A stretch of 20,419 bases of DNA. Source: a virus (taxonomy: Duplodnaviria > Heunggongvirae > Uroviricota > Caudoviricetes). Position 1 is the stretch's first letter. Each line of letters begins with the position of its first letter. A model generated the notes under the pieces. It searched no databases, had not been told where the DNA came from, and saw only the letters and a list, made by a program, of their open reading frames with translations. Below, one piece after another: positions 1-20,096 of the stretch. A program made the position numbers and the translations under genes. The DNA lies in the IMG/VR virus record IMGVR_UViG_2565956729_000008, positions 1 to 20,419 of that record; one strand, given 5' to 3'.

Positions 1-891
1 ATGTCGAAACTGAAAACAGACTGGGTGGTCGTAGCCACTTCAGGCCCCACTATCGACGGTCGGGAAATTGATCCAAAGTGGCTGACGGATGCCGCCGAGG
101 TTTATAACCCGGACGAACACACTGCCATGCTCTGGCCGTTTCATGCCAGCGCCGGCTGGCGTGCTTTCACCAATAACTATGGTCTTGTTGATGCACTGAA
201 GGCAGAAAAAGCCGGTGATAAAGTGCAACTGAAAGCCCGCCTGATACCCAACCGCTTTCTGACCGAAGCCAACGAGGCCGGACAAAAACTTTTCACCTCC
301 ATAGAGGTAAAGGAAAACTACCTGGGGACAGGCAAATTCTTTGTATCCGGCATCGCCGTGACTGACACACCGGCCAGCATCAACACCACCCGCCTGCAAT
401 TTTCGCAGGGAGATTCCATTCACATGGGGAATGCGGAAGAACTGAATTTCACGCTGCAGTCTGACGACGAGCAGGCCAAACGCAGTTTCTTTTCCGGTCT
501 TTTCTCCATGGGACGCGACAAACAGGAAAACGATATGAACGAAAAGCAGTTCGGTCAGTTGATGGACGCCATCAACAAAACCGGCGAACGTCTGGGCAAA
601 CTGGAAGAAAACGTCGCGCAGTTCAGCGCGAAGGATGCCACGAAAGATACCGGTGATAACAAACCGGAAGGCAGCGCCGGCGATCAGGGGCAGGACAACG
701 CAGAACAGAACAACAAGGACGAGAAAACCTTCATGCTGACTACTGAGCAGGGCGAAAAGCTGTTCTCCACGGTGAACGCCATCGCGGAGAAAGTCACCAG
801 TATGGAAACCGCATTTGCTGAACTCAGCAAGGATGCCACGAAGCTGCCGGGTAACAATCCGGCCGGTGGCGAAACTTTTAACCTGGTGTAA
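1..891 (+). CDS. O: Capsid scaffolding protein, P2 GpO family
   Basis: 296-aa ORF starting at window base 1. Motifs DGREI, ALKAEK, KLFTSIEV and GIAVTDTPAS match the conserved N-terminal half of P2 GpO scaffolds as I recall them. Acidic, helix-prone C-terminal half. The major capsid gene follows 15 bp downstream, the canonical O-N order. Confidence 0.85.
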   Translation: MSKLKTDWVVVATSGPTIDGREIDPKWLTDAAEVYNPDEHTAMLWPFHASAGWRAFTNNYGLVDALKAEKAGDKVQLKARLIPNRFLTEANEAGQKLFTSIEVKENYLGTGKFFVSGIAVTDTPASINTTRLQFSQGDSIHMGNAEELNFTLQSDDEQAKRSFFSGLFSMGRDKQENDMNEKQFGQLMDAINKTGERLGKLEENVAQFSAKDATKDTGDNKPEGSAGDQGQDNAEQNNKDEKTFMLTTEQGEKLFSTVNAIAEKVTSMETAFAELSKDATKLPGNNPAGGETFNLV

Positions 892-905
892 CCGGAGAGA
901 ACGCA

Positions 906-1919
906 ATGAACATGACACCAGAAGCACAAAAGCTGGTTAACCAGTACCTCAGCGAACTGCAAAAAACATTCAGTGACTGCGCTGTATCAGGTGATCGCAC
1001 TTTTTCCCTGACCGAACCGCGCAGCATTGCCCTGCGTAAAGCCCTGCTGGAAAGCGCGGAGTTTCTGAATTTCACCACCTGCATGGATGTTCCGCACCCG
1101 CAGGGGCAGGTCGTCACCGTGGGCGAATCCACGCTGCGCACTGGTCGCGTGAAAAGTGGTCGTTTCGCCAAAGGTTCGGGCATCAAAGGCAACGAATTCA
1201 AACTCGTTGAAACTGATTCCTGCTGTGTGATCACCTGGGAACAACTCGCCATCTGGGCGAATGCCGGCAGCCCGCAGGAATTTTTCAATCTGATGAACTC
1301 CGCCGCCGTCACCAACTTTGCGCTGGACATGCTGCGCATTGGCTTTAACGGTAAAGAGGCTGCTGAAAACTCTGACCCGGAAAGTCACCCGAACGGCGAA
1401 GACGTCAACATCGGCTGGCATGAAATCGCCAAAAAGTGGGGAAAACAGCCCGGCAATACCTCCCGCATCCTGACGGATGCCGTTACCCTGGGTGAAGGCG
1501 GTGATTATGTCGGCCTTGACGCCATGGCGTCAGATTTGATCCGCACTTACATCCCGGCGCAGTATCACAACGACCCGCGACTTACCGTGCTGGTTGGTGC
1601 TGACCTTGTGGCTGCCGAAGAGCTGCGCCTCTACAACAAAGAAGACAAGCCTACCGAAAAAGTGGCCGCACAGCTGCTGACGAAGAACATTGCGGGCCGC
1701 AAGGCCATCATTCCACCGTTTATGCCGGGCAAGCGTATGGTGGTGACCATGCTGCCAAATCTGCAGATCCTGACGCTGAAGGGTTCCCGCCGTCGTAAAG
1801 CAGAAGATGTGGGCGATCGCAAACAGTTCGAAAACTCATACTGGCGTTACGAGGGGTACGCCCTGGGCGATCCGGATTTATATGCTGCCGTAGATGAGTC
1901 TGCGGTCACCATCGCCTGA
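906..1919 (+). CDS. N: Major capsid protein, P2 GpN family
   Basis: 337-aa ORF with a GGAG ribosome-binding site upstream. Blocks GFNGK..SD and GGDYVGLDA resemble P2 GpN. Length and position between O and M fit. Confidence 0.9.
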   Translation: MNMTPEAQKLVNQYLSELQKTFSDCAVSGDRTFSLTEPRSIALRKALLESAEFLNFTTCMDVPHPQGQVVTVGESTLRTGRVKSGRFAKGSGIKGNEFKLVETDSCCVITWEQLAIWANAGSPQEFFNLMNSAAVTNFALDMLRIGFNGKEAAENSDPESHPNGEDVNIGWHEIAKKWGKQPGNTSRILTDAVTLGEGGDYVGLDAMASDLIRTYIPAQYHNDPRLTVLVGADLVAAEELRLYNKEDKPTEKVAAQLLTKNIAGRKAIIPPFMPGKRMVVTMLPNLQILTLKGSRRRKAEDVGDRKQFENSYWRYEGYALGDPDLYAAVDESAVTIA

Positions 1920-1936
1920 TAAACGGAGCGCACGGT

Positions 1937-2647
1937 ATGCCAACGCCAATGCAGCGACAACGTGCCCGACAGATGGATGAGCGCCGTGCAGCACTCATGA
2001 CCAGAACGGACGGGAGCGCTGTCAGTACAGAGAGCCAGCACATTAAGCTGCTGGCACTGAATAACGACATCAGACAACTGCACAACATGGAGCTGCTGTC
2101 TGACAAGCTGGAATTCAAGCGGAACACGCTGCTGCCCCGCTGGCTGCCACACGCACAGGCTTATCTGGAGGGGGAACGCGTCTATCAGAATCCCATTCTG
2201 GTGTACTGCATCATCTGGCTGTTCGATACCGGGCAGTTTGAGCTGGCGCTGCGGTGGACTGACATTGCCATTGAGCAGGGACAGAAGACGCCGGAGAACT
2301 TCAAAAGCGAGCTGCCAACGTTTGTGGCCCATTTCATTCTTGAATGGGCAGAAACCGAAGCTGAACGCGGGAACAGTATCGCGCCATATTTTCAGCAGGT
2401 GTTTGAAAAAATCCGCGACAAATGGCGTGTGAATGAACGTCTTGCTGCCCGCTACTGGCGCTTTGCAGGCGTCCAGCTGCTGCGCGGCGATGACGGCAAA
2501 CCACTGGCCAGTGCAATTAATGATACGGGGATACTGCAACAGGCTGATCAGTATCTGGAGCGGGCTGCCTGGCTGCATCCAAAAATTCAGGTGAAAACCC
2601 TGCGCCAGCGCATTGCTGCAAGACTGCGCGCGTTGCAGGGCACGTAA
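1937..2647 (+). CDS. M: Terminase small (endonuclease) subunit, P2 GpM family
   Basis: 236-aa ORF directly after N, close to P2 GpM length. Arg-rich N-terminus and an LLP.WLP-type motif resemble GpM-family proteins. GGAG ribosome-binding site precedes the ATG. Confidence 0.75.
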   Translation: MPTPMQRQRARQMDERRAALMTRTDGSAVSTESQHIKLLALNNDIRQLHNMELLSDKLEFKRNTLLPRWLPHAQAYLEGERVYQNPILVYCIIWLFDTGQFELALRWTDIAIEQGQKTPENFKSELPTFVAHFILEWAETEAERGNSIAPYFQQVFEKIRDKWRVNERLAARYWRFAGVQLLRGDDGKPLASAINDTGILQQADQYLERAAWLHPKIQVKTLRQRIAARLRALQGT

Positions 2648-2745
2648 ACGACTCCCAACAACCGGGCGGGCGCGGTGGAGGTGTGCCGGCAAAAGCCATC
2701 AGCACACTGCGGAAACCGGTCAGTCCGCCTTTCCACGGAGTGAGC

Positions 2746-3240
2746 ATGTTTGACGGGAAAAGCATTCACTATCAGCAGGCCATTATTCAGAACGATGGAT
2801 TCTGGCCGGATATTGATGCCGGTGATTTTGAAAAGAGCCGCAGTATCCCCGCCGTCACGTCACACGAAACGGTGCTGACGGCGCTGCTTTGCGCGGTGAC
2901 AGAGATTAACACTGAACTGGCTGCACGCCGTGAATACTGGCAGGAACAGGGCTACATCCGGGCCACTGATATTCCGGGTTACACCGTGTTGCAACCAGAG
3001 CCGCGCAACACGGATGCACAACCTCAACGGATGCAGAACCACATTACAGCACTGTACACCAAGGCTGTGTATGCACGCGCAAAGGCCGATCTTTTGCCGG
3101 AATCTGCCAGCGTGGGGCGGCGCGAGGCGCAGTCATCAACAGAAGCCAGCGAGAGCCGCCGGACGTTGCTGGCTGAAGCAGCCATGGCGGTGCGGGCGCT
3201 GCTGGGCCGACCGCGCGCCTCCATTGCACTGATTGATTAA
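2746..3240 (+). CDS. L: Head completion/stabilisation protein, P2 GpL family
   Basis: The ORF track starts it at 2683, but an in-frame ATG at 2746 follows a GGAG site and gives about 165 aa, close to P2 GpL. Motif FWPDID matches the GpL-family FFPDID region. Confidence 0.75.
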   Translation: MFDGKSIHYQQAIIQNDGFWPDIDAGDFEKSRSIPAVTSHETVLTALLCAVTEINTELAARREYWQEQGYIRATDIPGYTVLQPEPRNTDAQPQRMQNHITALYTKAVYARAKADLLPESASVGRREAQSSTEASESRRTLLAEAAMAVRALLGRPRASIALID

Positions 3241-3249
3241 GGAAATGGT

Positions 3250-3723
3250 ATGACGCAACTCGCCAGCCTGACGGCATTCATTGAAAACAATCTGCCGGCA
3301 CGCGCACGCATTCCGTTCACCAGTGACATGGATGATATCACGCTCGTTCCGTTTACGAAGTCGCTGGGGCACGGGCAGTTATGTACGCAGGTCCGAAAAT
3401 ATACGGCCTTTCTGCGATGGGACGCATGGCCCTATCGTCAGCTCAATCCGGATTTGGTGTTTTCTCTGGTTGAAGCCTGGCTGGCAGATAACGGCGGCGA
3501 CCTGCGCCAGCGCCTGGCACCGGATGCGCCAGCCGTTGACGTCGAAGCGGATGATGAAAATGAAGTGGCATGGCTGGAAATCAGTCTGCCGCTGGTTGAT
3601 CCCATCACGCTGGTTGAGGACGAAAACGGCCCCATCCCCAGAGGCGGGAAACGTTACCGGCTGGAAAAACCTGAAATCTGGGTGGCTCAGGCGCATCAGC
3701 TTCACTGTCAGGTGATGCCATGA
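3250..3723 (+). CDS. Putative tail completion protein (GpR-like)
   Basis: 157-aa acidic protein directly after L, with its stop overlapping the next start (ATGA). Size and weak pattern similarity to P2 GpR. Assignment rests mainly on position and size. Confidence 0.4.
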   Translation: MTQLASLTAFIENNLPARARIPFTSDMDDITLVPFTKSLGHGQLCTQVRKYTAFLRWDAWPYRQLNPDLVFSLVEAWLADNGGDLRQRLAPDAPAVDVEADDENEVAWLEISLPLVDPITLVEDENGPIPRGGKRYRLEKPEIWVAQAHQLHCQVMP

Positions 3724-4433
3724 CGCGCCCCGTGATTAACGAGTCACAACTCCGGCAGGTTCGTCGCGCCATCAGAGAGGCAGAACTTCCACCGGCAAAG
3801 GCCAGAAAGCTGCTGGTTCGCATTGCGAAATACGGCCTGATACCGGCTGCTCGACGCAATGTGAAAGCACAGCGAACACCGGAGGGGGCAGCTTGGGCAC
3901 CACGAAAAAGACCGGATAAAGCCAGCGGCAGGTATAAAAACAAAATGCTGCTGGGACTGCCGAAACTGCTGGCCATCAGGATTGACGGCAACGGGAAAAG
4001 TGTCCGCCTTTTCTTTAAAAAAGGGAATTACAACACCGGCTCTCATGGTGGGGCGGTCGCATGGGTACAACAGCATGGCGCAATCATCAAAGGCCGCGCC
4101 ACAAAGCGCCGGGACAACGAAGCCATGCGCACCCGCCCCGCCACACGACGGCAGGCGGAGCGGCTTCTTTCTCTGGGGTTTCGGGCACCCATCGGAGCGG
4201 TCAGCAAAAAAACCGGACGCAGGGGACGCAGAAAGCCCTCCCTGAAATGGATTATGGAAAACATGAGTATGGCGCAGGCCGGGCTGGTGATCAGCATTCT
4301 GAAAGGCGAGCAGAAAAAGCGTGTATGGGAAATCAAAATCCCCTCCCGCGCATTTCTGGGCGCCAGCGATGCTGAATTTACCCGCATTCTGGAAGCGCAG
4401 TTGCGCAGCCTGCATTACGGCGGCACGAGATAA
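3720..4433 (+). CDS. Putative virion morphogenesis / tail completion protein (GpS-like)
   Basis: 237-aa strongly basic protein, translationally coupled to the preceding gene. The segment GAVAWVQQHGAI resembles the conserved C-terminal motif of phage virion morphogenesis proteins. Position after an R-like gene matches P2 R-S order. Confidence 0.45.
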   Translation: MTRPVINESQLRQVRRAIREAELPPAKARKLLVRIAKYGLIPAARRNVKAQRTPEGAAWAPRKRPDKASGRYKNKMLLGLPKLLAIRIDGNGKSVRLFFKKGNYNTGSHGGAVAWVQQHGAIIKGRATKRRDNEAMRTRPATRRQAERLLSLGFRAPIGAVSKKTGRRGRRKPSLKWIMENMSMAQAGLVISILKGEQKKRVWEIKIPSRAFLGASDAEFTRILEAQLRSLHYGGTR

Positions 4434-4452
4434 CAAAATCAGGAGACAAATT

Positions 4453-5601
4453 ATGACCTGGCCATCTGTCACGATTGAACAGTACAACACGTTCAGTAGC
4501 TCGCCGGACGGCGTGGAAAATACGCTGCTGTTTGTGGGCAATGCACAAAACAACAAAGGTAAGGTTCTGCCGGTCAATGCCAACAGTGATCTGGATGAAT
4601 TGCTGGGAACGAACGCCAGCCCGCTGAAGAATTTCCTTCAGTCAGCACTGACCAATGCCGGACAGAATGCCTTTTTCTATGTTGCCGTTCTGCCGGAAGC
4701 AGGCAGGGGCAAAGAAGCGACGCCAGCCTGCCAGGCATGGCAGAACGCCGTACTGGCGGCTCAGGAAACTGTTTCAGTTGAAGGCGTGGTGATCACCGAG
4801 CCGGTCAGCACGAAGGATGATATCAACGCCATACAGGCGTTACGTCAGACCATCATCAATAAATATCAGCGCCGCATCTGGTTCATCCTGACCATCGCCG
4901 CCAACAACCACAGCAAAACCTGGGCGGAATACGTTGCCGAACTGACCGCACTACAGAAAGGCATTGCAGCCCCGCAGGTCATGCTGGTTCCGGAGATTTT
5001 TGGATTTGAACCGGGCGTTCTTGCTGGTCGCCTGTGTAACAGCGCCGTCACCATTGCTGACAGTCCGGCACGTGTGGCAACCGGGGCGCTGTCCGCACTG
5101 AAAACCACAGAGCGCCCGAAGGACAGCGCGGGACAGGCAATTGATCTCGCCACCCTGCAGGCGCTGGCAACCGCCCGCTACAGCGTGCCCATGTGGTATG
5201 CCGACTATGACGGCCTTTACTGGGCCGACGGCGTGACACTTGAGGTGGAAGGCGGGGACTACAACGTCATCGAACATGTCCGCATTGCTGATAAGGTGGC
5301 GCGCCGCGTACGGCTGATGGCCATCCCCAAAATTGCCGATCGCTCACTGAACAGCACACCGGGCAGCATTGCCGCACATGAAACGCTGTTTGCCCGCCCG
5401 CTGCGTACCATGGCGAAATCCACGCAGATTAACGGTGTCACCTTTCCGGGCGAAGTGAAATCGCCACAAAAAGGCGATGTGGCCATCACCTGGCAGGACG
5501 AAAAGACGGTCAGCATCAGCATTGTTGTCCGCCCTTACGCCTGCCCCAAAACCATCAAAGTGGGCATTCAGCTGGACAAATCTCTGGAGGAGAACGCATG
5601 A
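4453..5601 (+). CDS. Putative contractile tail sheath protein (not the P2 FI family)
   Basis: ATG at 4453 is preceded by AGGAG with 7-nt spacing; the track start at 4321 is an upstream in-frame extension overlapping the previous gene. 382 aa, immediately before a ~150-aa tube-like gene and upstream of chaperone and tape measure, the canonical sheath position. No recognisable similarity to P2 FI. Confidence 0.5.
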   Translation: MTWPSVTIEQYNTFSSSPDGVENTLLFVGNAQNNKGKVLPVNANSDLDELLGTNASPLKNFLQSALTNAGQNAFFYVAVLPEAGRGKEATPACQAWQNAVLAAQETVSVEGVVITEPVSTKDDINAIQALRQTIINKYQRRIWFILTIAANNHSKTWAEYVAELTALQKGIAAPQVMLVPEIFGFEPGVLAGRLCNSAVTIADSPARVATGALSALKTTERPKDSAGQAIDLATLQALATARYSVPMWYADYDGLYWADGVTLEVEGGDYNVIEHVRIADKVARRVRLMAIPKIADRSLNSTPGSIAAHETLFARPLRTMAKSTQINGVTFPGEVKSPQKGDVAITWQDEKTVSISIVVRPYACPKTIKVGIQLDKSLEENA

Positions 5602-6053
5602 CAACCCGCATTAACGGCATGGCCTTTGATGTTTATGTTGGCGGAACGGATATCCGCGTAAAAAACATTTCGCTGGATATCAGCGACGAAAGCGCCGTGG
5701 CCAAAACCCGTGGCATCCCTGACGGCAAACTGCGCGGCCCTGTCAGTGCCGAAGGTGAAATCGAAATGAGTACCCGCAGCTTTAACCAGCTCGGGGAAGT
5801 GGCGGCTCAGGCGGGATCGTGGCGTGACCTGCCGCCAATGGATTTTGTGTTTTACGCCAACACGGGCACCGAAGAAATCCGCGTTGAAGCCTTCGGTTGC
5901 GAGCTGATGCTTTCGAACCTGTTAAGCATTGACACCGAGAGCGCGGATCTGACCACGCACAAAATCAAGTACGTGGTGGCAAGCCCTGACTTTGTGCGTA
6001 TCAACGGCGTGCCCGTTCTCTCAGAGAACGACGTGCGCGGGCTGATGGGGTAA
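5598..6053 (+). CDS. Putative tail tube protein
   Basis: 151-aa ORF, start overlapping the sheath stop (ATGA), GGAGGAG upstream. Size and position typical of myovirus tube proteins. Confidence 0.5.
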   Translation: MTTRINGMAFDVYVGGTDIRVKNISLDISDESAVAKTRGIPDGKLRGPVSAEGEIEMSTRSFNQLGEVAAQAGSWRDLPPMDFVFYANTGTEEIRVEAFGCELMLSNLLSIDTESADLTTHKIKYVVASPDFVRINGVPVLSENDVRGLMG

Positions 6054-6056
6054 ACC

Positions 6057-6353
6057 ATGCAGGAGCATGAACGCACCATCATCACCCTGGGCATTCTGGG
6101 CGGAATCGCTGCCGCAAGTCGGGTGCTGGCTGGCGCAGAACCGATTACGTTGCGGTTGTTTGTGGGCCGAACCCTGCTGGGGAGCGCGCTGGGTGTTTCT
6201 GCCGCCGCCCTGCTGGTTCGCTACCCGAACCTTGACCCACTGGCCATTGCCGGCGCAGGTACCGCAATGGGCGTTGCCGGTTACCAGATTGTGGAAATCT
6301 TCCTGCGCCACATGCGCCGGAAGCTGGACGAAAAAGAGAACAAAGAGGAGTAA
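6057..6353 (+). CDS. Y: Holin, P2 GpY-like
   Basis: 98-aa protein with hydrophobic transmembrane segments and a highly charged C-terminal tail (RRKLDEKENKEE). The stretch VLAGAEPITLRLFVGRTLLG and GYQIVEI resemble the P2 Y holin as I recall it. Lies directly upstream of the endolysin. Confidence 0.75.
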   Translation: MQEHERTIITLGILGGIAAASRVLAGAEPITLRLFVGRTLLGSALGVSAAALLVRYPNLDPLAIAGAGTAMGVAGYQIVEIFLRHMRRKLDEKENKEE

Positions 6354-6358
6354 CCGCA

Positions 6359-6466
6359 ATGCAGTCCCGCAGGGATCAGAAAGCCGCTGCCATTGTCTGG
6401 AAAATTATCCGGGCGTTGTGGCGCTGGTTGCGTAAACCTCAACAACCCCGTAAGGAGCAAAAATGA
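6359..6466 (+). CDS. Small basic amphipathic peptide (35 aa), possible lysis accessory
   Basis: ATG at 6359 through TGA at 6464-6466, translating to MQSRRDQKAAAIVWKIIRALWRWLRKPQQPRKEQK. Its stop overlaps the endolysin start (ATGA). Below the ORF-track size cut-off. Coding status unproven. Confidence 0.25.
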   Translation: MQSRRDQKAAAIVWKIIRALWRWLRKPQQPRKEQK

Positions 6467-6804
6467 AACTCTCCGATAAGCAACAACAATTTACCGTCAT
6501 GATCGGAAAACTCATCCAGTTTGCCCATCAGCGCGGTTATGGCCTGACGTTCGGTGAGGCGTACCGCACGCCAGAGCAGGCAAAACTCAACGCACAAAAG
6601 GGATCAGGCATCACCAACAGTCTGCACTGCCAGCGACTGGCGGTGGATTTTAATCTGTTTATTAACGGTGAATACCAGACCCGCACAGAGGCTTACCGCG
6701 AACTGGGCGAGTACTGGGAATCCCTCGGCGGCACATGGGGCGGTCGTTTTAAAAACCGCCCGGATGGCAATCATTTCAGCCTTGAGCACGACGGTGTGCG
6801 CTGA
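6463..6804 (+). CDS. Endolysin, peptidase M15 / LAS-type zinc metallopeptidase
   Basis: 113 aa with an H-x6-D motif (HCQRLAVD) and a downstream His pair (NHFSLEHD), matching the zinc-binding triad of M15-family cell-wall peptidases. AAGGAG ribosome-binding site upstream. Sits next to the holin. Confidence 0.85.
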   Translation: MKLSDKQQQFTVMIGKLIQFAHQRGYGLTFGEAYRTPEQAKLNAQKGSGITNSLHCQRLAVDFNLFINGEYQTRTEAYRELGEYWESLGGTWGGRFKNRPDGNHFSLEHDGVR

Positions 6805-6810
6805 TTTTAC

Positions 6811-6842
6811 GCTTAATAAGCCTTCCTGCAGGCTTATTAAGC
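6811..6842 (+). terminator. Perfect 12-bp stem / 8-nt loop hairpin after the lysis genes (weak terminator or attenuator)
   Basis: GCTTAATAAGCC-TTCCTGCA-GGCTTATTAAGC, followed by the T-rich stretch CCTCTTATTCTT. It begins 7 bp after the endolysin stop. The T-tract is imperfect, so termination is probably partial. Confidence 0.35.
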
Positions 6843-6868
6843 CCTCTTATTCTTGACATTAACAGGAC

Positions 6869-7162
6869 ATGATGATGAACGATAAAAACACCCAAACCAC
6901 CGCAGAGAACGCCATCACTTTACAGGTCGGCGAGCATGAACTGACGTTTATCCCGACGGTGAAAGACTACAACGACCTGCAGAACGACTTCATGCCGGAC
7001 AATAAAATTGCACCGCTGAAAAACTACCTGCGCCGCATCGTGATTAAAGAGCACCGCGATCTGCTGAACCAGTTGCTGGAAAAACCGGGAATGCCGGCCA
7101 GTCTGGCAACTGCCGTGAATAACGAGTTTGTGCCGGAAGTGGAAATCACCGTAAAAAAATAA
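6869..7162 (+). CDS. Tail assembly chaperone, short form (E/G-like)
   Basis: 97-aa acidic protein immediately upstream of the tape measure. Three consecutive ATGs at 6869-6877 with AGGA at 6864-6867, so the true start is probably 6872 or 6875. Ends GTA AAA AAA TAA. Confidence 0.6.
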   Translation: MMMNDKNTQTTAENAITLQVGEHELTFIPTVKDYNDLQNDFMPDNKIAPLKNYLRRIVIKEHRDLLNQLLEKPGMPASLATAVNNEFVPEVEITVKK

Positions 7163-7350
7163 AAAGCCATCTGAGGGCCATTGATCGCAATGACCTTACC
7201 AGGATGCTGATCCTGCGCCGCCACTGGCTGCCCGGTGAAGATGATTCACCACAGTCACTGGCTGCTGCCGTCTGGCTGGATAACCACTACTGGGAAAATA
7301 TGGGTATCGCCGTCAATAACGGCATTATCCGCGCCTTTAAGGGAACGTAA
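6869..7350 (+). CDS. Tail assembly chaperone, long form via programmed -1 frameshift (E+E'-like)
   Basis: Slippery heptamer A AAA AAA at 7153-7159 sits directly before the zero-frame stop. The -1 frame from 7159 is open for 62 codons (IKSHLRAIDRND...IIRAFKGT) with no ATG, and its TAA at 7348-7350 overlaps the tape-measure ATG at 7350. I checked the frame codon by codon. Confidence 0.55.
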
Positions 7351-9446
7351 TGTCACAACAGCGCCTTGAATTACTTCTTGAACTGACAGACCGCCTGACA
7401 AGGCCGTTACGCGCAGCCGGGCGACAGGTTCAGGGATTTGCTGCAACAAGTCGGGGAGCTTTTCGGGACATTGCTACCGGAGGCGCTGCGCTCTGGGGAG
7501 TGGGTGCAGCCATTCAGGGCGCACTGATGCCAGCCATTGAAATGGACAGGGCGCTCGGTGAGGTGAAATCACTGGGCGTCGCAGAGTCCGGACTGCGTAA
7601 ACTCAGCCGCGCCGCCGTTGATTTCACTATGGAATACGGCGGAGCTGCGCAGGATTTTGTGCGTGCTTCTTACGACATCCAGTCAGCCATTGCCGGGTTA
7701 ACTGACGATGAGCTGTCCCGCTTCACCACCGCATCAGCAACAGTGGCAGCAGCAACCAAATCCAGCAGCCAGACCATTACCGCCTACATGGGCACCATGT
7801 ACGGCATATTTAAAGACCAGGCTGATGCCATGGGAAAAAGTAAATGGGTGGAGCAGATCGCCGGACAAACCGCCACTGCCGTGCAAATGTTTAAAACAAC
7901 CGGCGATAACATGTCAGCGGCATTCACCACACTGGGTGCCAGCGCAAAAGCAGCCGGTATTGATGCGGCCGAGCAGTTCGCCGTACTGGGGCAACTGCAG
8001 GCAACCATGAGTGGCAGCGAGGCTGGTACAAAATATAAATCCTTCCTGGCATCCGTTGGTAAAGCACAGAAAAAGCTGGGGCTTAATTTCGTGAATAAAG
8101 ACGGCACGATGAAAAGTGTTGTCGAGATCATGAAACTTATCAGGGGCAAATTTGGTGATCTGTCAAAAGTGGCTGACTCTGATTTGCTGAAAAGCGCTTT
8201 TGGCTCCGATGAGGCTGTGGCCATGATTAAATTGCTCAATGCAGACATTGGCGGACTGGAAAAGAACATCGCCACGCTGGGCAATATCAAAGGTATGGAT
8301 AAGGCTGTCGAAATGGCACAAGCCATGGCCGATCCGTGGGAACAGGCCGCTGCGATTATTAACGGCATTCGCATTGAAATTGGCACACAACTGTTACCCG
8401 TTCTGTATCCATTCATCCAGAAAAGCAACGAAGGCGGTAAATCCTTTGTTGCCTGGTTGCGTCTGTATCCAAACATCACACGTGCAATCGGCTTATTAAG
8501 CGCGGCACTTATTGGTGTTGCGGCGGTTGGCGCAACGGTCAATATCGTAATGGGGGTGGCGAAATTTATCTGGGTGGGATTACGCATGGTCTGGATGGCC
8601 GCAATCGCACCACTGAAATTAATCATCTTTCTGTATCGTGCCCTGAAAGTGGTTATGCTGGCGTTCTGTGCTACTGCCCGCATGGTCAGGGCATTATATC
8701 TGGCGATGAGTATCGCCATGGGGGCGCACAATGTCAGGGCCAAAATTCAGATTGCACTGCTGAAACTGCAACGCATCGGTATGTGGCTTTATTCTGCCGC
8801 ACTGGGCGCTGCAGCTGTGGCCATGAAAATTTATACCGCTGTTACCGGTGGCGCAGCCGTTGCCACTCAGCTACTTTTCAGCCCGATAACGTTAATCATC
8901 CTGGCACTGGCTGCGCTGGGCGTGGGCATTTATTTTCTGATTACCCGCTGGGATGAGATCAAAGCGGCACTGATGGATACAGCCGCTTTTCAGTGGGTAA
9001 CCAGTGTCATAAAAAATATAGCTGTATGGTTCGGCAATACCTGGAAAGGCATTAAAAGCGGCTGGGATGCCGTTATTAATTATTTTTCCACCCGCTCACC
9101 GCTGGAAATATTTCAGGATTATGTCCGTCTGATTAATAAATTATTTTCAGGACTATGGCGCACAATTATCGGTATGTTCAGCTCAGCATTCAGATGGATT
9201 GCTGACAAGCTGAATATGCTCCCGGGTATAAATATTGATGTACCAGAAATTACAGATAACAGTGAGGGTTCTGTATTAACCGGTGGAAAAGTTATTAGCG
9301 CCGGGCCAGGTGGCATTGCGGCAAAAATGCAAAATAACAGCGACAGCCAGACCACAATTGATAACTCCCGTCGCGTGGTCAATGTCAATGTGCAGGATGC
9401 ATCCCCGGCCCACCTTAATGAATGGATGGAGCTGCATGCATACTGA
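7350..9446 (+). CDS. Tail tape measure protein
   Basis: 698 aa, Ala/Gly-rich and helical in the N-terminal half, with several long hydrophobic segments in the C-terminal half. Positioned directly after the frameshifted chaperone. Confidence 0.85.
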   Translation: MSQQRLELLLELTDRLTRPLRAAGRQVQGFAATSRGAFRDIATGGAALWGVGAAIQGALMPAIEMDRALGEVKSLGVAESGLRKLSRAAVDFTMEYGGAAQDFVRASYDIQSAIAGLTDDELSRFTTASATVAAATKSSSQTITAYMGTMYGIFKDQADAMGKSKWVEQIAGQTATAVQMFKTTGDNMSAAFTTLGASAKAAGIDAAEQFAVLGQLQATMSGSEAGTKYKSFLASVGKAQKKLGLNFVNKDGTMKSVVEIMKLIRGKFGDLSKVADSDLLKSAFGSDEAVAMIKLLNADIGGLEKNIATLGNIKGMDKAVEMAQAMADPWEQAAAIINGIRIEIGTQLLPVLYPFIQKSNEGGKSFVAWLRLYPNITRAIGLLSAALIGVAAVGATVNIVMGVAKFIWVGLRMVWMAAIAPLKLIIFLYRALKVVMLAFCATARMVRALYLAMSIAMGAHNVRAKIQIALLKLQRIGMWLYSAALGAAAVAMKIYTAVTGGAAVATQLLFSPITLIILALAALGVGIYFLITRWDEIKAALMDTAAFQWVTSVIKNIAVWFGNTWKGIKSGWDAVINYFSTRSPLEIFQDYVRLINKLFSGLWRTIIGMFSSAFRWIADKLNMLPGINIDVPEITDNSEGSVLTGGKVISAGPGGIAAKMQNNSDSQTTIDNSRRVVNVNVQDASPAHLNEWMELHAY

Positions 9447-9786
9447 TAAACCGCTTTACATTGATTTGCTTATCACCGGTCGCAATTTCACGCTGAACAG
9501 CGCCGCCGAACCGGTGCTGTGCAACAACAGGGAAAGCATTGCCCAGGACTGCCAGCACGCCATCATTGAAAGCGGACTGGCAACGCGCCTGCTGGCTGAA
9601 AAAAGCCCGACGCTTCGCGCCGACATTATGATGCAGATGACACTGCTGATTGAAGATGATGAGCGCATCACACCCGGCACGGTCAGTGTGACAGAGGAAA
9701 CCCCTCTTTCCGGCCGCCTGCTGATTAGCGCCCACACCGAAGATTTTTTTGATCCCCTGACTTTTACGGTATCTCTTGATGATTAA
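9436..9786 (+). CDS. Putative small baseplate protein (position of GpW/gp25-like wedge)
   Basis: 116 aa. ATG at 9436 is preceded by GGAG and overlaps the tape-measure 3' end; the track start at 9283 is an extension. Size and position before the J-like gene suggest a baseplate wedge protein. Sequence similarity to GpW is weak. Confidence 0.3.
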   Translation: MHTDKPLYIDLLITGRNFTLNSAAEPVLCNNRESIAQDCQHAIIESGLATRLLAEKSPTLRADIMMQMTLLIEDDERITPGTVSVTEETPLSGRLLISAHTEDFFDPLTFTVSLDD

Positions 9787-10963
9787 CGGCAAACCAACCG
9801 CAGATTACGAGCGCATTCTGGCTGATAACGGCATGCCGGTAACAGAAGAACAGGCGCGCACTGAATTTGAGGCCATCGTAAAAGACGAAGGGCTTATCAC
9901 TAACACATCCCGCATGTCGCCGTTCTGGCGGTTGATTACAGCCATTACCACAAAGCCCGTGATGTGGCTTAAAGATGCACTGGTTAATGTGGTAATGAAA
10001 AACCTGTTTCTGGTAAGTGCCAGCGGTGTATTTGTGGATGTTTTCGCATGGGCGGTAAACCTGCAGCGCAAGGCTGCCACGCACGCAGCTGGCGTGATTC
10101 GTTTCACAAAAGACGACATTGATCACGCGGTCACCGTACCGGCTGGTACGCAGATTCAGACAGAACGCATTAACGGCGTGATTTATACGCTGACCGTTGT
10201 CAGGGATACCATTATTCCGGCAGGAACACTCAGCATGAACATCGATGTTTCTGCTGAACAGGCCGGAGCCGGGTTTAACCTCGCGCCGGGGTATTACCGC
10301 ATTCTTCCTGTGGCGATTAATGGTATCGCCGGCGTTGAGAACGACGAAAACTGGCTGACCACGCCGGGGGCCAACGAAGAAAGCGACGACGAACTGCGTG
10401 ATCGCGTTCGCAATCAGTTTAATCTTGCCGGTGCTTATCACACCGACGCTGTTTACCGGGGATTAATTGCCGGTGTTGCCGGCATCAGTGCCGACCGCAT
10501 CTATTTTTTGCATGACGCACCACGCGGCCCCGGCACAGCAAACGCTTACATTCTGCTGGATACCGGCATCGCATCCGGACCGTTCGTTGATGCAGTAAAC
10601 GCATTTATTAACGATGAAGGTCATCACGGACACGGCGATGATTTGCGCTGTTTTTCCATGCCTGAAACGCGCCATGCCCTGACCGTGACACTCTGGCTGT
10701 ATGCAACACTGAACCTCAACGCTGAAGAGATACAGGCTTTATTACGCAACGTAGAGAATCTGGTCCGCTGTGCGTTTCGCGAAAACAGCGATTATGACGT
10801 TCAGAAAACATGGCCGTACAGCCGTTTCAGCATGTCCCGACTGGGCGAAGAGATCCACCAGGTATTTCCGCAGGTGGAATCGGTCACGTTTTCCCTTCCG
10901 GATATTCTCAGCGACCTGGCTGTGCCTCGCCTGGAATCCCTTATCGTGGAGGTGGGGTCATGA
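9779..10963 (+). CDS. Baseplate J-like protein
   Basis: 394 aa from the ATG at 9779 (the track uses a TTG at 9776). Start overlaps the upstream stop. The block ESDDELRDRVRNQF resembles the conserved ESD..R.R...F block of P2 GpJ / Baseplate_J proteins. Confidence 0.7.
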   Translation: MINGKPTADYERILADNGMPVTEEQARTEFEAIVKDEGLITNTSRMSPFWRLITAITTKPVMWLKDALVNVVMKNLFLVSASGVFVDVFAWAVNLQRKAATHAAGVIRFTKDDIDHAVTVPAGTQIQTERINGVIYTLTVVRDTIIPAGTLSMNIDVSAEQAGAGFNLAPGYYRILPVAINGIAGVENDENWLTTPGANEESDDELRDRVRNQFNLAGAYHTDAVYRGLIAGVAGISADRIYFLHDAPRGPGTANAYILLDTGIASGPFVDAVNAFINDEGHHGHGDDLRCFSMPETRHALTVTLWLYATLNLNAEEIQALLRNVENLVRCAFRENSDYDVQKTWPYSRFSMSRLGEEIHQVFPQVESVTFSLPDILSDLAVPRLESLIVEVGS

Positions 10964-11595
10964 ATATTCCGGAGATGCCCGAATTCCCTCTCCCAACCTG
11001 GATGAACAAGGGAGAGCCATTAACACTGGCACATTCTTCACATCGTTACTGGGAGAAGGTCTACAGCTGGCTGACATGGCCACTACAGCAAATTGATGTT
11101 GATACCTGCGCAGAGCCTCTGCTTAACCTGCTGGCCTATCAGCGCAACATCACCCGCTTCAGTGGGGAGCCAGTTTCATTATTTCGCTTAAGGGTAAAAC
11201 ACGCGTTTATCAACGCTCAGGACTCGGGCGAACGTGCCGGCTTCGAACGCATCTTTAAGCGTCTTGGCGTGGGAGAGGTAAAAACCCTGGAACGACAGTT
11301 GCAGCATGACTGGGACGTTATTTTACTGCGCATCAATGACACCCAGTTAAGCGAAAACAATGCCCTGATGATGCAGCTCGTGCGCCAGTATGGCCGTACC
11401 TGCAGGCGCTATTTCTTTCAGGTAATCAATACAACCACTGCCCGGCTGACAGCCGGCACATTTGATGGCCATTACAGGTATCACACAGCAGAAGCAACGG
11501 TGAGAAAGGACACCATCTGGTTAACCGCTTCGCTACAGGCAGGACATTACGGCCTGTCCGTGGAGCATTACACATTACAGGCAGACGAAGCATGA
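10960..11595 (+). CDS. Putative baseplate/tail protein I-like
   Basis: 211 aa from the ATG at 10960, overlapping the J stop (ATGA); the track start at 10810 is an upstream extension. Loose pattern similarity to P2 GpI and the canonical position between J and the fiber gene. Confidence 0.45.
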   Translation: MNIPEMPEFPLPTWMNKGEPLTLAHSSHRYWEKVYSWLTWPLQQIDVDTCAEPLLNLLAYQRNITRFSGEPVSLFRLRVKHAFINAQDSGERAGFERIFKRLGVGEVKTLERQLQHDWDVILLRINDTQLSENNALMMQLVRQYGRTCRRYFFQVINTTTARLTAGTFDGHYRYHTAEATVRKDTIWLTASLQAGHYGLSVEHYTLQADEA

Positions 11596-13460
11596 GCACG
11601 ATTATTACTGAACAGTACGAACACTGGTGTGCGAATCAGCTCATCAGTGGAAAACCTGCGCGCCCGGATACATTTGTTTTTGCATATATTCCGGGACAGG
11701 ATGAATCCGCAGAGATCCCCCGCGATGAGATACTCCCTGATGAATCCATGATTCAGTATCGTGCGCCGGTCACCCAGTACGGCCTCCTGTCGCCGAACGC
11801 GACCGCGTTTTCCATCATTCTGGACACGACAGTCGGCGACTTCGAATACAACTGGATCGGTCTGCTGAACGAAGAAAGCGGCGTGCTCTGCATGATTGCA
11901 CACACACCTCGTCAGCAAAAAATTAAAACAGCGAACGGCGTACAGGGAAACAACCTGATCCGCACATTTTCCATGGAGTTTGACGGCGCAGCCGCAGCAA
12001 TGCATATCGATGTCAGTGCTGATGTCTGGCAGATTGATTTCACTGCACGCCTTGCAGGAATGGATGAGGCCCGCCGGCTGCTGGCGTTTGATCACTACGG
12101 TGAAGCCGCTTTTCTGGGGGATGGTTTTCAGGTCAGCTATCAGGATGGTACCGCTACTGTTGCCGCCGGCGTGGGTTATGTGGGAGGTCTGCGCGTCAGT
12201 CTGCGCGAACCTTACAGCCTGCCGGCTGCGGTCGGGGATACCATTTGGATTGATGCAAGCTGGCAGGGATTTGTTACCGGCGAATGGAATACCGTTTTTA
12301 CGTTCTGCGCCCGCCAGGAACATGCGTCCTATACAGACGGTAACGGCTTCCGACACTTTGTCGCGCCACTTGCGAAACTGACATCAGAAGGCTTACAGGA
12401 TTTACGTCCACAGACGCCCGATGAAGAACAAAGCAATGCACTGGCAGAGCACGAAAAATCCCGCCGTCATCCGGACGCAACACTGAAGGAGAAAGGCTTT
12501 GCGCAGTACAGCAACTCCACCGACAGCGACGCAGAAGACCGCGCCGCCACATCAAAGGCAGTAAAAGCCGCAATGGATAAGGCAAAAGGCGCTGTTGAGC
12601 GTGACGGCGACACCATGACCGGGGAACTGAAAATCCGTGGTGTTAATGCGCTGAGGATTTTCAACGAAGCCTTTGGTCTGATTTTTCGTCGTTCGGAAGA
12701 GTGCCTGCACCTTATCCCTACCAGTGAAGGTCAGGGCGAGAATGGCGATATTGGTCCACTTCGACCGTTCACTATTAATCTGCGGACGGGTGAAATATCC
12801 ATGTCGCATAAAGTGTCTGTTGGCGGCGGTTCTCAGGTCAATGGTGCGCTGGGTATCGGCGTTCAGAACGCGCTGGGCGGAAACTCAATTGCTTTCGGGG
12901 ATAACGATACAGGTATAAAACAAAACGGCGACGGCATTCTGGATGTTTATGCGAATGGACAGCATGTATTTCGTTTCCAGAATGGTGTGGCAATAGCGTT
13001 AAAAAATATTCAGGCCGGAAATGCTAAAAAATTCACGTTATCCAGCGACAACAACTCCACGAAAAACGCAACGTTTAATTTATGGGGTAATTCATCCCGA
13101 CCTGTAGTTGCAGAGCTTGGTGATGATTCCGGCTGGCATTTTTACAGCCAGAGAAATACCGATGGCAGTATCACATTCGCTGTAAACGGACAGATGACCC
13201 CATCAAACTATGGAAATTTCGATGCCCGTTATCAGCAGCGAAATGGCGGCGTGCAGGATGTGCGTTATGGTTCCGAAATGTATTACAACCCGGGAGGTAA
13301 CCAGGTATCCTGGACATTTCGCTCACCTTCAGGCCACGGGTTATCCGGTATTAATGTGCAGGAAACCGGAAGTAATTCGGCAGATAACATCGGCGGCGTG
13401 TATTACCGTCCGCTTCAGAAACTGATTAATGGCACCTGGTATAACGTGGCGAGTGTTTAA
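11592..13460 (+). CDS. Tail fiber protein with a P2 GpH-like C-terminal receptor-binding region
   Basis: 622 aa. AEHEKSRRHPDATLKEKGF and the C-terminal ~200 aa (NALGGNSIAFGDNDTGIKQNGDGILDVYANGQHVFRFQNGVAIALKNIQAG ... LINGTWYNVASV) closely match the P2 GpH C-terminus as I recall it. The N-terminal ~150 aa is of a different type from the P2 H N-terminus. Confidence 0.9.
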   Translation: MSTIITEQYEHWCANQLISGKPARPDTFVFAYIPGQDESAEIPRDEILPDESMIQYRAPVTQYGLLSPNATAFSIILDTTVGDFEYNWIGLLNEESGVLCMIAHTPRQQKIKTANGVQGNNLIRTFSMEFDGAAAAMHIDVSADVWQIDFTARLAGMDEARRLLAFDHYGEAAFLGDGFQVSYQDGTATVAAGVGYVGGLRVSLREPYSLPAAVGDTIWIDASWQGFVTGEWNTVFTFCARQEHASYTDGNGFRHFVAPLAKLTSEGLQDLRPQTPDEEQSNALAEHEKSRRHPDATLKEKGFAQYSNSTDSDAEDRAATSKAVKAAMDKAKGAVERDGDTMTGELKIRGVNALRIFNEAFGLIFRRSEECLHLIPTSEGQGENGDIGPLRPFTINLRTGEISMSHKVSVGGGSQVNGALGIGVQNALGGNSIAFGDNDTGIKQNGDGILDVYANGQHVFRFQNGVAIALKNIQAGNAKKFTLSSDNNSTKNATFNLWGNSSRPVVAELGDDSGWHFYSQRNTDGSITFAVNGQMTPSNYGNFDARYQQRNGGVQDVRYGSEMYYNPGGNQVSWTFRSPSGHGLSGINVQETGSNSADNIGGVYYRPLQKLINGTWYNVASV

Positions 13461-13462
13461 CA

Positions 13463-14020
13463 ATGTTACATTTAAAAAATATTACTGCGGGTAATCCGAA
13501 AACCGCGGAACAATATCAGCTGACAAAACAATATGGTGTCACCTGGCTTTTTTCGGAAGACGGCAAAAACTGGTATGAAGAACAGAAGAACTTTGCCAGT
13601 GACACAATAAAAATGGTTTACTCCGGGGACGGGCGCGTGGTGTGGGTCGGTAAGGATGTGACAGGCATTGAACCCCGTAACGCCAGTGTTATTGAAGTTC
13701 CGGATATTACCGCTAATCGCCGTATTACCGCGCCTGGTTACTGGTTTTACCGCGATGGCAATTTTATCTTCGACTACAAACTTAAAGCGGAAGATGAGCG
13801 TGATGCACTGTTAAAACAGGCCAGTATCATGACCAGCGAATGGGAAAAAGACCTGCTGCTGGGATTAATCAGCGACGAAGACAGGGAAAAACTGAAAGCC
13901 TGCCGTATTTATACAAAAACGTTACGGGAGATGACATTCAGCCAGGTTACAGATAAAGCATCGTATGCCACAATTGTATGGCCGGAATTACCGCAGGATA
14001 TTAACGAGAATAAAAAATAA
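13463..14020 (+). CDS. Tail fiber assembly chaperone (GpG/Tfa family)
   Basis: 185 aa immediately downstream of the fiber gene. The C-terminal motif VWPELP matches the conserved WP..P ending of Tfa chaperones. Confidence 0.8.
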   Translation: MLHLKNITAGNPKTAEQYQLTKQYGVTWLFSEDGKNWYEEQKNFASDTIKMVYSGDGRVVWVGKDVTGIEPRNASVIEVPDITANRRITAPGYWFYRDGNFIFDYKLKAEDERDALLKQASIMTSEWEKDLLLGLISDEDREKLKACRIYTKTLREMTFSQVTDKASYATIVWPELPQDINENKK

Positions 14021-16548: not shown

Positions 16549-16572
16549 CATTTGAACGTACAGGAAAATGAG

Positions 16573-17295
16573 ATGAAATATTCTGTATGGGAGCACGCCA
16601 TTCTGCGCCCGGCCCCCATGGCCATCACCTGTTCAATGGTTTGCCTCCATCCATGGTCAGAAAATACGGGAAACATTACACCATCGGGGCGTTATCTCAG
16701 CCCGGATAATGCTGTATCCGCGCTTTTACCTTATCTGACAGAAAGCACTGAAAAAGACGTTGTGGCGCTGTTATTTTGCGCCCCGTCTGCAGGCGAGTTT
16801 TTATCACTGGCCAGACAGTTTTCAGGTGCACTTCCATTGCCGGAAGTGGGAAGAATGTCCCGCATGATCTCCAGCCAGCTTTCGCTGGCCGTGAGTAAAA
16901 TGCAGCTCCCTGCAAAACCTGTAACCACACTTCCTGCAGAGGTCACGCTGTCCACACAGACCATCCGCAGCATGACGCGGGCAGCGACTATTGCGCAGGC
17001 TGCGATCCCGACCGCTGTATCTCCGGAAACATTATCCTCGTCTCTGAATCAGTTCAGAATCGCGAGAGATAAGGCACTACAGGAAATCACCGACCAGCAG
17101 GCCGCAATTCAGAAAAACACGTGTCCGGTGTGGCGTTTTTTTTATACGGGCACACTAAATCAGGTTGCAGCACTGATAAAAAAAAATATTCCACATCCGG
17201 AATGGGTTTTTACAGCTGTGATGCTGTTTGTCGGTAATGATCTTTCATCACTAAGAGAATCACTACATGACCCAGATGATCGTTCTTGCACTTGA
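16573..17295 (+). CDS. Hypothetical protein (orphan, no recognisable family)
   Basis: About 240 aa from the ATG at 16573, preceded by AGGAAAA; the track uses a TTG at 16552. Tightly packed between the second fiber gene and the U-like gene with a 3' overlap. Low-complexity Ser/Thr/Ala-rich middle region. Confidence 0.4.
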   Translation: MKYSVWEHAILRPAPMAITCSMVCLHPWSENTGNITPSGRYLSPDNAVSALLPYLTESTEKDVVALLFCAPSAGEFLSLARQFSGALPLPEVGRMSRMISSQLSLAVSKMQLPAKPVTTLPAEVTLSTQTIRSMTRAATIAQAAIPTAVSPETLSSSLNQFRIARDKALQEITDQQAAIQKNTCPVWRFFYTGTLNQVAALIKKNIPHPEWVFTAVMLFVGNDLSSLRESLHDPDDRSCT

Positions 17296-17842
17296 CGGGG
17301 AAGCCATTCTGTTACGCAACATCATCGTCAGCGCCACCATGCAACTACCGGATAAAGATATGTCCGGACAGTCAACCAGCACCACCAGTGCCCAGCAGGG
17401 AAGCAAGGCTAAAGAGCTGCGTGTATCAGGCGTCATTGATTTTAATGATGAAGCTGTTCTGACCCGTATATTTCAGCTTGCAGAAGCCACAGAAAGCAAC
17501 GGGGCTAAAAAAACATACCGCATCGCCAACGCTACTGCTAAGGCGATTAATATGCGACAGGGTGTTTTTTCGGGCGGCATTGATGCCACGGAACAACAGG
17601 GCAAGATGCACTGGCAGGTCACCTTTACTCTCAGGGAAAAATTAAGCGTGCCGGAAAAAGCATCGGCACGCAGTGGCTCACAGAAAACAATCGCAAAGCA
17701 GCAAACACAGAACGGCAGTGAGCAGGCACCGGATAAAGGAATGAATACCCAGGAGACTTTCTGGAAAAATATCAATGATGGTATTGGCTCCGGGCTGGAC
17801 TGGATTGGCATCGGGAGCGTGAAAGAGGAAGGGAAAACATGA
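17267..17842 (+). CDS. Putative tail protein (GpU-like)
   Basis: 191 aa; alternative start at 17276 (MIVLALDGE). Loose pattern resemblance to P2 GpU. Directly precedes the hub/spike-like gene, as U precedes D in P2. Confidence 0.4.
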   Translation: MTQMIVLALDGEAILLRNIIVSATMQLPDKDMSGQSTSTTSAQQGSKAKELRVSGVIDFNDEAVLTRIFQLAEATESNGAKKTYRIANATAKAINMRQGVFSGGIDATEQQGKMHWQVTFTLREKLSVPEKASARSGSQKTIAKQQTQNGSEQAPDKGMNTQETFWKNINDGIGSGLDWIGIGSVKEEGKT

Positions 17843-19536: not shown

Positions 19537-19575
19537 ACACCAGACATAAAAGCCACATAAACGCCCCATCACATA

Positions 19576-19600
19576 ACGCACGGTCCCGGCCGTGCGTTTT
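19576..19600 (+). terminator. Rho-independent terminator at the end of the late operon
   Basis: ACGCACGG-tcccgg-CCGTGCGT followed by TTTT: a GC-rich 8-bp stem, short loop and U-tract, 40 bp after the last tail gene stop. Confidence 0.7.
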
Positions 19601-19856
19601 CCTATCCACCACCTGATTAATGCGTTCTGCGTGCCATTCTGGTGCTGTATGCGCACACCGCGTAAACGGTGTGACGTAAAGCGTGAGGTGACGTAAACCG
19701 CGCTACCCCCTCCAACCCGCGGGTTTTGTGTTGAAACGCTTTTTCAGTTTTCTGGCGTGCAAAAATGACCGCCAGCCAGCGCAGTAACTGGGGGGAAAGC
19801 GAAGTTCTGAAATTTCACACTTTGAAATTTTTTGCAATTTTAAGAGAGATTTTTTC

Positions 19857-20067
19857 GATCGCATAAATGGCAGGAGAAACAAAACAGACTGATATTAAAA
19901 GAGTTTTCATACTTTACGCGAGACAAAAAACGATCACGAAAGGATCGCATCAAACAACCATCAGACAAAGAAGCCAGACACGGCGCGGCCTGCACAAAAT
20001 TAACGGGTAAAATAAAACTGAAAAAAGGATCACAACAGGGCGACGATCGCATCATAAAGATCGGCAT
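19857..20067. repeat. GATC-containing direct repeats in an A-rich non-coding region
   Basis: Four copies of GATCG(G)CAT-AAA: GATCGCATAAA at 19857, GATCGCATCAAA at 19943, GATCGCATCATAAA at 20045 and GATCGGCATAAAA at 20059. Seven GATC sites fall within 19857-20116. Confidence 0.4.
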
Positions 20068-20096
20068 AAAAGGTTCAACTGGATAAGGTTATGCAA

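Follow-up and report, generated by a model that had tools for sequence, protein, structure and literature searches.

A candidate disruptin-type lysis peptide encoded between holin and endolysin in a spaninless clade of HP1-like Escherichia coli prophages

A spanin pair consists of an inner-membrane-anchored coiled-coil protein and an outer-membrane lipoprotein, and it fuses both membranes. About 13 to 15% of phages with Gram-negative hosts carry no recognisable spanin (PMC6139136; 10.1101/515445). The founding disruptin, gp28 of phage phiKT, was described by Holt et al. (bioRxiv 10.1101/515445, later J Bacteriol). This protein has 56 aa, a net charge of +7 and a predicted amphipathic helix but no localisation signal, and its gene separates those for endolysin and holin in a phage that lacks spanins (10.1101/515445). 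gp28 complements lambda Rz/Rz1 amber mutants and associates with the outer membrane, and synthetic gp28 is as bactericidal as LL-37 (10.1101/515445). A 2026 paper treats the general use of disruptins by spaninless phages as a question that is still open (PMC12819732).

We analyzed a 20,419-nt stretch of phage DNA, referred to here as the window, from an E. coli prophage. The locus of interest belongs to the tail/lysis block of this HP1-like phage of the Peduoviridae. The gene order of the block is sheath (DUF2586), tube (HP1 Orf24), holin, small open reading frame (ORF), endolysin, tail assembly chaperone (TAC), DUF6890, and tape measure. Holin and endolysin are separated by 109 nt, the largest gap in the gene-dense part of the window (1-19536), and this gap is filled by the small ORF, with its ATG at 6359, 35 codons, and a TGA at 6464-6466 (Table 1). 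The GAGGAG Shine-Dalgarno sequence of the small ORF lies within the final holin codons, 8 nt 5' of the ATG, and is kept in all loci that bear the ORF (termed “type A”). At its other end, the stop codon of the small ORF overlaps the endolysin ATG (6463-6465) in an ATGA, and the endolysin's own Shine-Dalgarno sequence, AAGGAG (6452-6457), falls inside the final codons of the small ORF. The endolysin is without a SAR or signal sequence.

Table 1. Features of the small ORF and its lysis cassette, in window coordinates
Feature	Coordinates	Strand	Description or basis
Small ORF, 35 aa, MQSRRDQKAAAIVWKIIRALWRWLRKPQQPRKEQK	6359..6466	+	candidate disruptin-like lysis peptide; ORF list and sequence
Shine-Dalgarno GAGGAG for small ORF	6345..6350	+	read from sequence
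Holin, 98 aa, PF04550 Phage_holin_3_2	6057..6353	+	Pfam E=5.5e-28; PHROG 175 'holin' E=1.3e-32
Endolysin, 113 aa, M15_4 metallopeptidase	6463..6804	+	Pfam PF13539 E=1.4e-11; PHROG endolysin families
Predicted amphipathic alpha-helix, codons 3-24	6365..6430	+	AlphaFold2, helical wheel, hydrophobic moment
Basic tail RKPQQPRKEQK, codons 25-35, predicted disordered	6431..6463	+	low pLDDT; carries endolysin AAGGAG
Endolysin-to-TAC spacer, 64 nt, 13-bp hairpin	6805..6868	.	site of ~430 nt overlapped Rz/Rz1 in sister phages

The peptide has a net charge of +9, with 11 Lys and Arg residues, 2 acidic residues, 3 Trp, and no Cys. AlphaFold2 modeled a single helix at residues 3-24, with a block-mean pLDDT of 89 over residues 11-20; the basic tail beyond it was predicted to be disordered. 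In helical-wheel projection, the Lys and Arg residues of the core all fall within an arc of ~100 degrees, and W14, W21, and W23 lie on a broad hydrophobic face. The maximum hydrophobic moment was 0.78, compared to 0.45+/-0.12 in shuffled sequences (p=0.0055) and 0.89 for LL-37 by the same measure. We found no transmembrane segment, signal peptide, or lipobox in the peptide (max KD(19)=0.36; longest uncharged run, 6 residues). As judged from sequence and predicted structure, it has the physico-chemistry of a cationic antimicrobial peptide. The original prediction had placed a 35-aa, Trp/Arg-rich amphipathic helix between a holin and an endolysin and had coupled it to the endolysin start. Both parts held up, the first through the exact translation, the AlphaFold2 helix, and the moment of 0.78, and the second through the PF04550 and M15_4 neighbors and the ATGA overlap.

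An open frame of 35 codons is by itself unremarkable. Therefore, we collected relatives of the locus: 41 complete E. coli genomes (~94% identity), 80 IMG/VR loci found via the endolysin, 10 loci with the identical peptide, 43 metagenome loci, and E. albertii. The comparison set the window against a group of sister phages (ESSI2_ev239, Cronobacter phage ESSI-2, Salmonella phage SI7, and many IMG/VR contigs) that are syntenic with it and whose endolysins are 75-81% identical to that of the window. In the sister phages (“type B”), the holin stop overlaps the endolysin start, and there is no small ORF. Instead, an overlapped i-spanin/o-spanin pair comes immediately after the endolysin and ends at the TAC start; its Rz has an N-terminal transmembrane segment and its Rz1 a lipobox. 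The distance from endolysin to TAC reflects this difference, being 68-100 nt in type A and 464-507 nt in type B loci. HP1, HP2, and K139 likewise have two-component spanins, as reported by Kongari et al. (PMC6139136).

We searched for a spanin elsewhere in the ORF-bearing phages. The prophage of E. coli RM10740 (pheA to raiA, ~34 kb) encodes a holin and an endolysin, and its annotation lists no spanin. A lipobox screen of the window and the RM10740 prophage yielded no o-spanin or u-spanin candidate, while both positive controls, BamD and the Rz1 of ESSI2_ev239, were recovered. Using three sister-phage Rz/Rz1 spanin proteins as queries, tblastn gave nothing significant in the window or in the full prophage. 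All remaining proteins of the window are head or tail proteins. Across non-identical loci, 30 had a cationic small ORF and no Rz, and 53 had Rz/Rz1, no small ORF, and a holin abutting the endolysin. Four off-diagonal loci were produced by the screening criterion itself and are explained by ORFs lying out of frame within the holin gene or by the Q27* allele described below. Since the ORF-bearing loci form one monophyletic clade, this complementarity of ORF and spanin reflects a single evolutionary exchange, and the loci do not count as independent replicates. More distant PF04550 holins (P2-like, L105-L140) all stand in holin-lysozyme-Rz-Rz1 cassettes that lack the small ORF, and thus the arrangement is not general to this holin family.

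The spacer between endolysin and TAC contains a hairpin at 6811-6842 with a perfect 13-bp stem (GCTTAATAAGCC..GGCTTATTAAGC). Two diverged loci, L033 and L141, have hairpins at the same site of the spacer, although their stem sequences differ. The hairpin may be a terminator, an attenuator, or a stabiliser left at the former Rz/Rz1 site. Just downstream, the TAC ORF (6869-7162) terminates on A_AAA_AAA (7153-7159), and the -1 frame is open onward through the DUF6890 ORF (7204-7350), which abuts the start of the tape measure. This looks like a programmed -1 frameshift pair of the lambda G/GT or P2 E/E+E' type, in which case DUF6890 would be a frameshift extension and not an independent gene. At the far end of the window, ~740 nt of non-coding DNA (19537-20278) separates the last baseplate gene from a small hydrophobic, Hok/Gef-like ORF (MSQKSLTAITFCATVILIIWMLHGSLCEIR...) at 20279-20419 that runs to the window end. 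It is probably a type I toxin-antitoxin moron, as a Hok/Gef gene is annotated at the corresponding position of the RM10740 prophage.

While comparing the ORF-bearing loci, we identified three diverged lineages (the window type, L141, and L033/L104). All three have, at the same site, a peptide with a net charge of +7 to +9 and an amphipathic, Trp-bearing helix, and a spanin was found in none of them. In L141, the holin is 83%, the endolysin 95%, and the peptide (P0008) 57% identical to the window sequences; this peptide has a charge of +8 and keeps all three Trp residues. The corresponding values for L033/L104 are 73%, 87%, and ~25-30%. L033, L104, and the RefSeq entry WP_305855007.1 have a 41-aa ORF whose start overlaps the holin stop (GTGA) and whose stop overlaps the endolysin start (ATGA), and the L033 peptide keeps the amphipathic helix and one Trp, with a charge of +9. 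Homology between the window and L033 peptides is weakly supported (local alignment p=0.014-0.018; BLAST finds nothing).

Apart from the peptide's own family and the L033 type, an exhaustive profile search of 1.84 billion representative proteins yielded a single new lineage, P0008 at locus L141; the top match of that search, P0006, is a repetitive, unrelated protein and was discarded. A word-index protein search retrieved close variants and one frameshifted allele only. Scanning genome contigs with the holin added E. albertii only, and scanning viral contigs with the L033 holin found that locus itself only. The degenerate DNA pattern WKI[IL]R[AT]LW matched known type A contigs in IMG/VR and otherwise gave chance matches only. 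With the peptide as query, no Pfam, PHROGs, or NCBIfam entry scored above threshold; Pfam WRW (E=0.0068) and DUF6332 (E=0.061) were below the curated cutoff and were judged spurious. Among 50,697 phage records, tblastn found no match to the peptide, and no isolated phage had the small-ORF arrangement, which was seen in prophages only. The peptide and the endolysin had no match in a sequence search of the PDB, and a full-text literature search with the peptide sequence found no paper.

Taken together, we believe that the small ORF encodes a disruptin-type lysis peptide, a reading to which we assign a probability of roughly 0.55. We describe it as a functional analogue of phiKT gp28 and not a homologue because the two have no sequence similarity (BLASTP, no alignment at E<=100). 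At 35 aa and +9, the peptide falls within the size and charge range of a disruptin (<80 aa, cationic, >= +4). Its alpha-helix is predicted to be amphipathic, it is free of signal sequence, transmembrane segment, and lipobox, and its gene sits inside the lysis cassette beside holin and endolysin. The phage genome is without a spanin by the bioinformatic measures of annotation, lipobox screen, and tblastn. The peptide itself was rejected as a spanin of either kind. A two-component spanin does not fit a peptide with no transmembrane segment, Cys, or lipobox and no similarity to the sister Rz/Rz1, and a unimolecular spanin of the T1 gp11 type does not fit one with neither a lipoprotein signal nor a C-terminal transmembrane segment.

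In our model, the peptide would be co-translated with holin and endolysin from the late tail/lysis transcript. The PF04550 holin would open the inner membrane, and the M15 endolysin would degrade the cell wall. Made in the cytoplasm without an export signal, the peptide could reach the periplasmic face of the outer membrane after holin triggering. There, its Lys/Arg face would bind the anionic lipid/LPS surface and its Trp-rich face would insert, so that the outer membrane is destabilised. The Rz/Rz1 complex does this final lysis step in the sister phages, and the small-ORF clade has lost it. Translation in vivo, localisation, and the outer-membrane-disrupting activity of the peptide are what we infer from these comparisons. 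The original prediction had suggested an outer-membrane disruptor that substitutes for spanins. That suggestion has gained comparative support, in that the ORF clade is spaninless and its closest relatives have Rz/Rz1 without the ORF, while the activity stays a proposed one.

Several points count against the disruptin reading. Spanins are dispensable in shaken laboratory culture, and so a spaninless phage need not have a replacement. The prophage-only occurrence weighs on the same side, as do the single swap behind the ORF/spanin complementarity, the lack of sequence similarity to gp28, the frameshifted allele P0004 (5 contigs), and the build of the peptide, which is much shorter than gp28 (35 versus 56 aa) and has a single helix. 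In addition, such strong basicity could instead serve in binding nucleic acid or the acidic tail of the holin.

The acidic tail also enters into the idea of a lysis-timing regulator, in which an antiholin-like peptide attaches to the inner membrane from the cytoplasmic side, or to the holin C-terminus, and delays or sharpens triggering. The small ORF directly follows the holin, its start overlaps the holin stop in L033 and L141, and a dual-start motif is absent from the holin itself. Acidic residues mark the holin C-terminus (DEKENKEE), against +9 for the peptide. However, known antiholins are membrane proteins, namely, holin isoforms, T4 RI, and P2 LysA. The small peptide has no transmembrane segment, is unrelated to the holin, and is read from a separate cistron in another frame than the single-start holin. 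Furthermore, sister phages whose holins are equally single-start have no small ORF, and an antiholin would leave the loss of Rz/Rz1 unexplained. The antiholin option named in the original prediction is thus disfavored on three counts (no transmembrane segment, no relation to the holin, missing spanins unaccounted for), and we consider it unlikely.

Inspection of the L141 locus brought out a likeness between the small ORF and the endolysin. The ORF there begins MKLTDRQQKRAAIAWKIL and the endolysin MKLSDKQQQFTVMIGKLI (MKLTDRQQ versus MKLSDKQQQ; 5001-5120 versus 5107-5230). The two are colinear from residue 1 over 19 residues (Smith-Waterman p=0.0004 versus shuffles), and 35/75 nt are identical without gaps (codon-shuffle p=0.001). 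In the other lineages, ORF and endolysin align in nearly the same register (within one residue), which is not significant for any of them individually. Profile-profile comparison placed peptide positions 1-13 onto endolysin positions 1-13 (P=0.0024, probability 12%). The L141 alignment and the profile-profile match suggest that the small ORF may have been born by partial tandem duplication of the endolysin 5' end, including its Shine-Dalgarno sequence. An alternative to this origin is later gene conversion in L141 alone.

The same likeness would suit an accessory peptide derived from the N-terminal helix of the endolysin, one that chaperones, inhibits, or tethers the M15 endolysin until release. 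Ms6 Gp1, encoded upstream of lysA, occupies a similar position. Such a role is consistent with the translational coupling of the small ORF to the endolysin, with the colinearity of residues 1-19 in L141, and with a top profile-profile match that runs N-terminus to N-terminus. Nevertheless, the sister endolysins, which are 75-81% identical and of the same length, function without a small ORF. The core of the peptide has become a Trp/Arg amphipathic helix that does not resemble the endolysin helix, and the missing spanins would again be unexplained. An endolysin accessory peptide is, in our view, quite unlikely.

Substitutions in the small ORF speak to whether the peptide itself matters. Within the close clade, we identified 12 nucleotide haplotypes of the ORF. 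The pN/pS was 0.19 in its frame compared to 1.03 and 0.91 in the other two frames, with 0.07 for the holin and 0.064 for the endolysin. By site, 14 variants were synonymous and 13 nonsynonymous, whereas ~21% synonymous would be expected under neutrality (binomial p=3.8e-4), and most replacements were conservative (R/K/H, I/V, A/V, E/D). Against L141, the peptide core had a pN of 0.19 and a pS of 0.72, at which synonymous sites are saturated. Both indels are in frame, one of 3 nt (L031, 34 aa) and one of 9 nt (L101, delta-QQP, 32 aa). These patterns lead us to regard the small ORF as a real protein-coding gene under purifying selection. The frame is thereby conserved among relatives, which the original prediction had named as a check (pN/pS 0.19, in-frame indels), with one exception on 5 contigs, the P0004 allele, which is frameshifted after residue 20. 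A 122-aa ORF at 6067-6435 (+), which lies across the holin gene in a different frame and extends into the small ORF, was rejected as a composition artefact because its length varies in relatives (53-128 aa) and its pN/pS is ~1 across the small-ORF region, the only part of it tested.

Natural alleles also divide the peptide into its two parts. The nonsense alleles Q27* (27 aa; L017 / L143) and Q34* (33 aa; 182 contigs) lose the tail only, and in L141 a 1-nt shift alters the tail. As all natural alleles other than the frameshifted P0004 retain the helix, the tail appears dispensable. A tail that is the least constrained part of the protein, with the endolysin Shine-Dalgarno sequence inside it and an ATGA overlap at its end, would be expected of a leader ORF, for which translation alone matters. 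The ORF would then deliver ribosomes to the endolysin start and set the ratio of holin to endolysin, and the peptide would be functionless. This does not accord with purifying selection at the amino acid level on the helix core or with charge and amphipathicity kept across three diverged lineages. Termination in Q27* and Q34* is no longer coupled to the endolysin start, yet both alleles persist, with 182 contigs carrying the 33-aa form, and type B phages couple holin directly to endolysin with no leader at all. We therefore hold a pure leader to be very unlikely. A structured RNA or a non-functional spacer open by chance is highly improbable: a 35-codon open frame is not rare by chance and PGAP leaves the RM10740 ORF unannotated, but the region has no Rfam match at E<=1 and an RNA fold z-score of -1.2, which is not significant, and its substitution pattern is frame specific and its indels are in frame.

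Returning to the disruptin reading, we can join it to the proposed origin of the ORF. The locus would then represent a second, independently evolved disruptin family. In it, a Trp/Arg-rich peptide of 27-35 residues would have originated when the endolysin 5' end was partially duplicated in tandem, and would have assumed the task of disrupting the outer membrane, allowing Rz/Rz1 to be lost completely from one clade of temperate HP1-like E. coli prophages. We put this fuller account forward tentatively, at somewhat under an even chance.

The ORF has been recorded before. The exact peptide has a gene call in 202 blocks from public assemblies and is deposited as ERA33284.1, 'hypothetical protein H001_02463 [Escherichia coli UMEA 3955-1]', and a commoner variant, UniProt/UniRef A0A2X6GE95_ECOLX, is found on at least 1000 contigs. 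On the other hand, PGAP leaves the gap empty in RefSeq strain RM10740 (L004) yet annotates the 41-aa form in some E. coli (WP_305855007.1). Annotation of the small ORF is inconsistent across databases. The expectation that gene finders would miss it applies to PGAP in RM10740 but fails in general, given the 202 assembly blocks and the deposited entry. What is already known is thus an ORF deposited as a hypothetical protein, and what is new is a candidate function as a non-homologous, disruptin-type peptide.

To our knowledge, phiKT gp28 is the only disruptin that has been characterised. The locus described here offers a clean test case in E. coli, as the peptide gene and Rz/Rz1 are mutually exclusive in close syntenic prophages and near-isogenic natural controls would be available in the spanin-bearing sister phages. 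At this length the peptide can be synthesised, and its natural 27- and 33-aa truncations map a minimal core. If the disruptin reading is true, disruptins would be a recurrent convergent solution that extends to temperate myoviruses and is not confined to one podovirus. It would also supply a search rule, namely, a small cationic ORF coupled to the endolysin where Rz/Rz1 is missing, and it would add both a new Trp/Arg-rich membrane-active peptide and a case of gene birth from an endolysin fragment.

Small genes beside a holin or endolysin are found in other phages, and lambda S107, T4 RI, P2 LysA, LambdaSo Lcc6, and Mu releasin are likewise so placed. These antiholins and lysis accessory proteins are membrane-anchored, whereas the window peptide is without a transmembrane segment. 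The Rz/Rz1 pairs of ESSI-2 (Evevirus), SI7 (Irrigatiovirus), HP1, and K139 belong to the same lysis cassette in phages that are otherwise syntenic (PMC6139136). Theirs is the function that the window peptide is proposed to replace. With neither transmembrane segment nor lipobox, the peptide cannot span the periplasm as a spanin pair does. In length, charge, and hydrophobic moment it is in the same range as LL-37, and the chemistry of its Trp/Arg-rich face at a membrane interface can be likened to that of the lactoferricin or tritrpticin types. It differs from the cationic antimicrobial peptides in being phage-encoded, made inside the target cell, and proposed to act from inside at lysis, and it has no sequence relationship to them.

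The closest comparison is with phiKT. Both gp28 and the window peptide are small and highly cationic (+7 and +9), with a predicted amphipathic helix and no signal sequence, transmembrane segment, or lipobox. They differ in build, the window peptide having 35 aa in a single Trp/Arg-rich helix with a disordered tail and gp28 having 56 aa in a longer, multi-cluster form. They differ also in the phage, a temperate HP1/P2-like myovirus prophage as opposed to a virulent podovirus, and in gene order, which is holin-peptide-endolysin in the window and endolysin-peptide-holin in phiKT. In both, the peptide gene lies between the endolysin and a holin of the PF04550 family, and spanins are absent. The window holin aligns with the gp29 holin of phiKT (L097 21283-21666) at 29% identity over 75 aa (E=2e-11). 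With both holins in the PF04550 family, the known disruptin gene of phiKT and the candidate disruptin gene of the window adjoin the same holin type.
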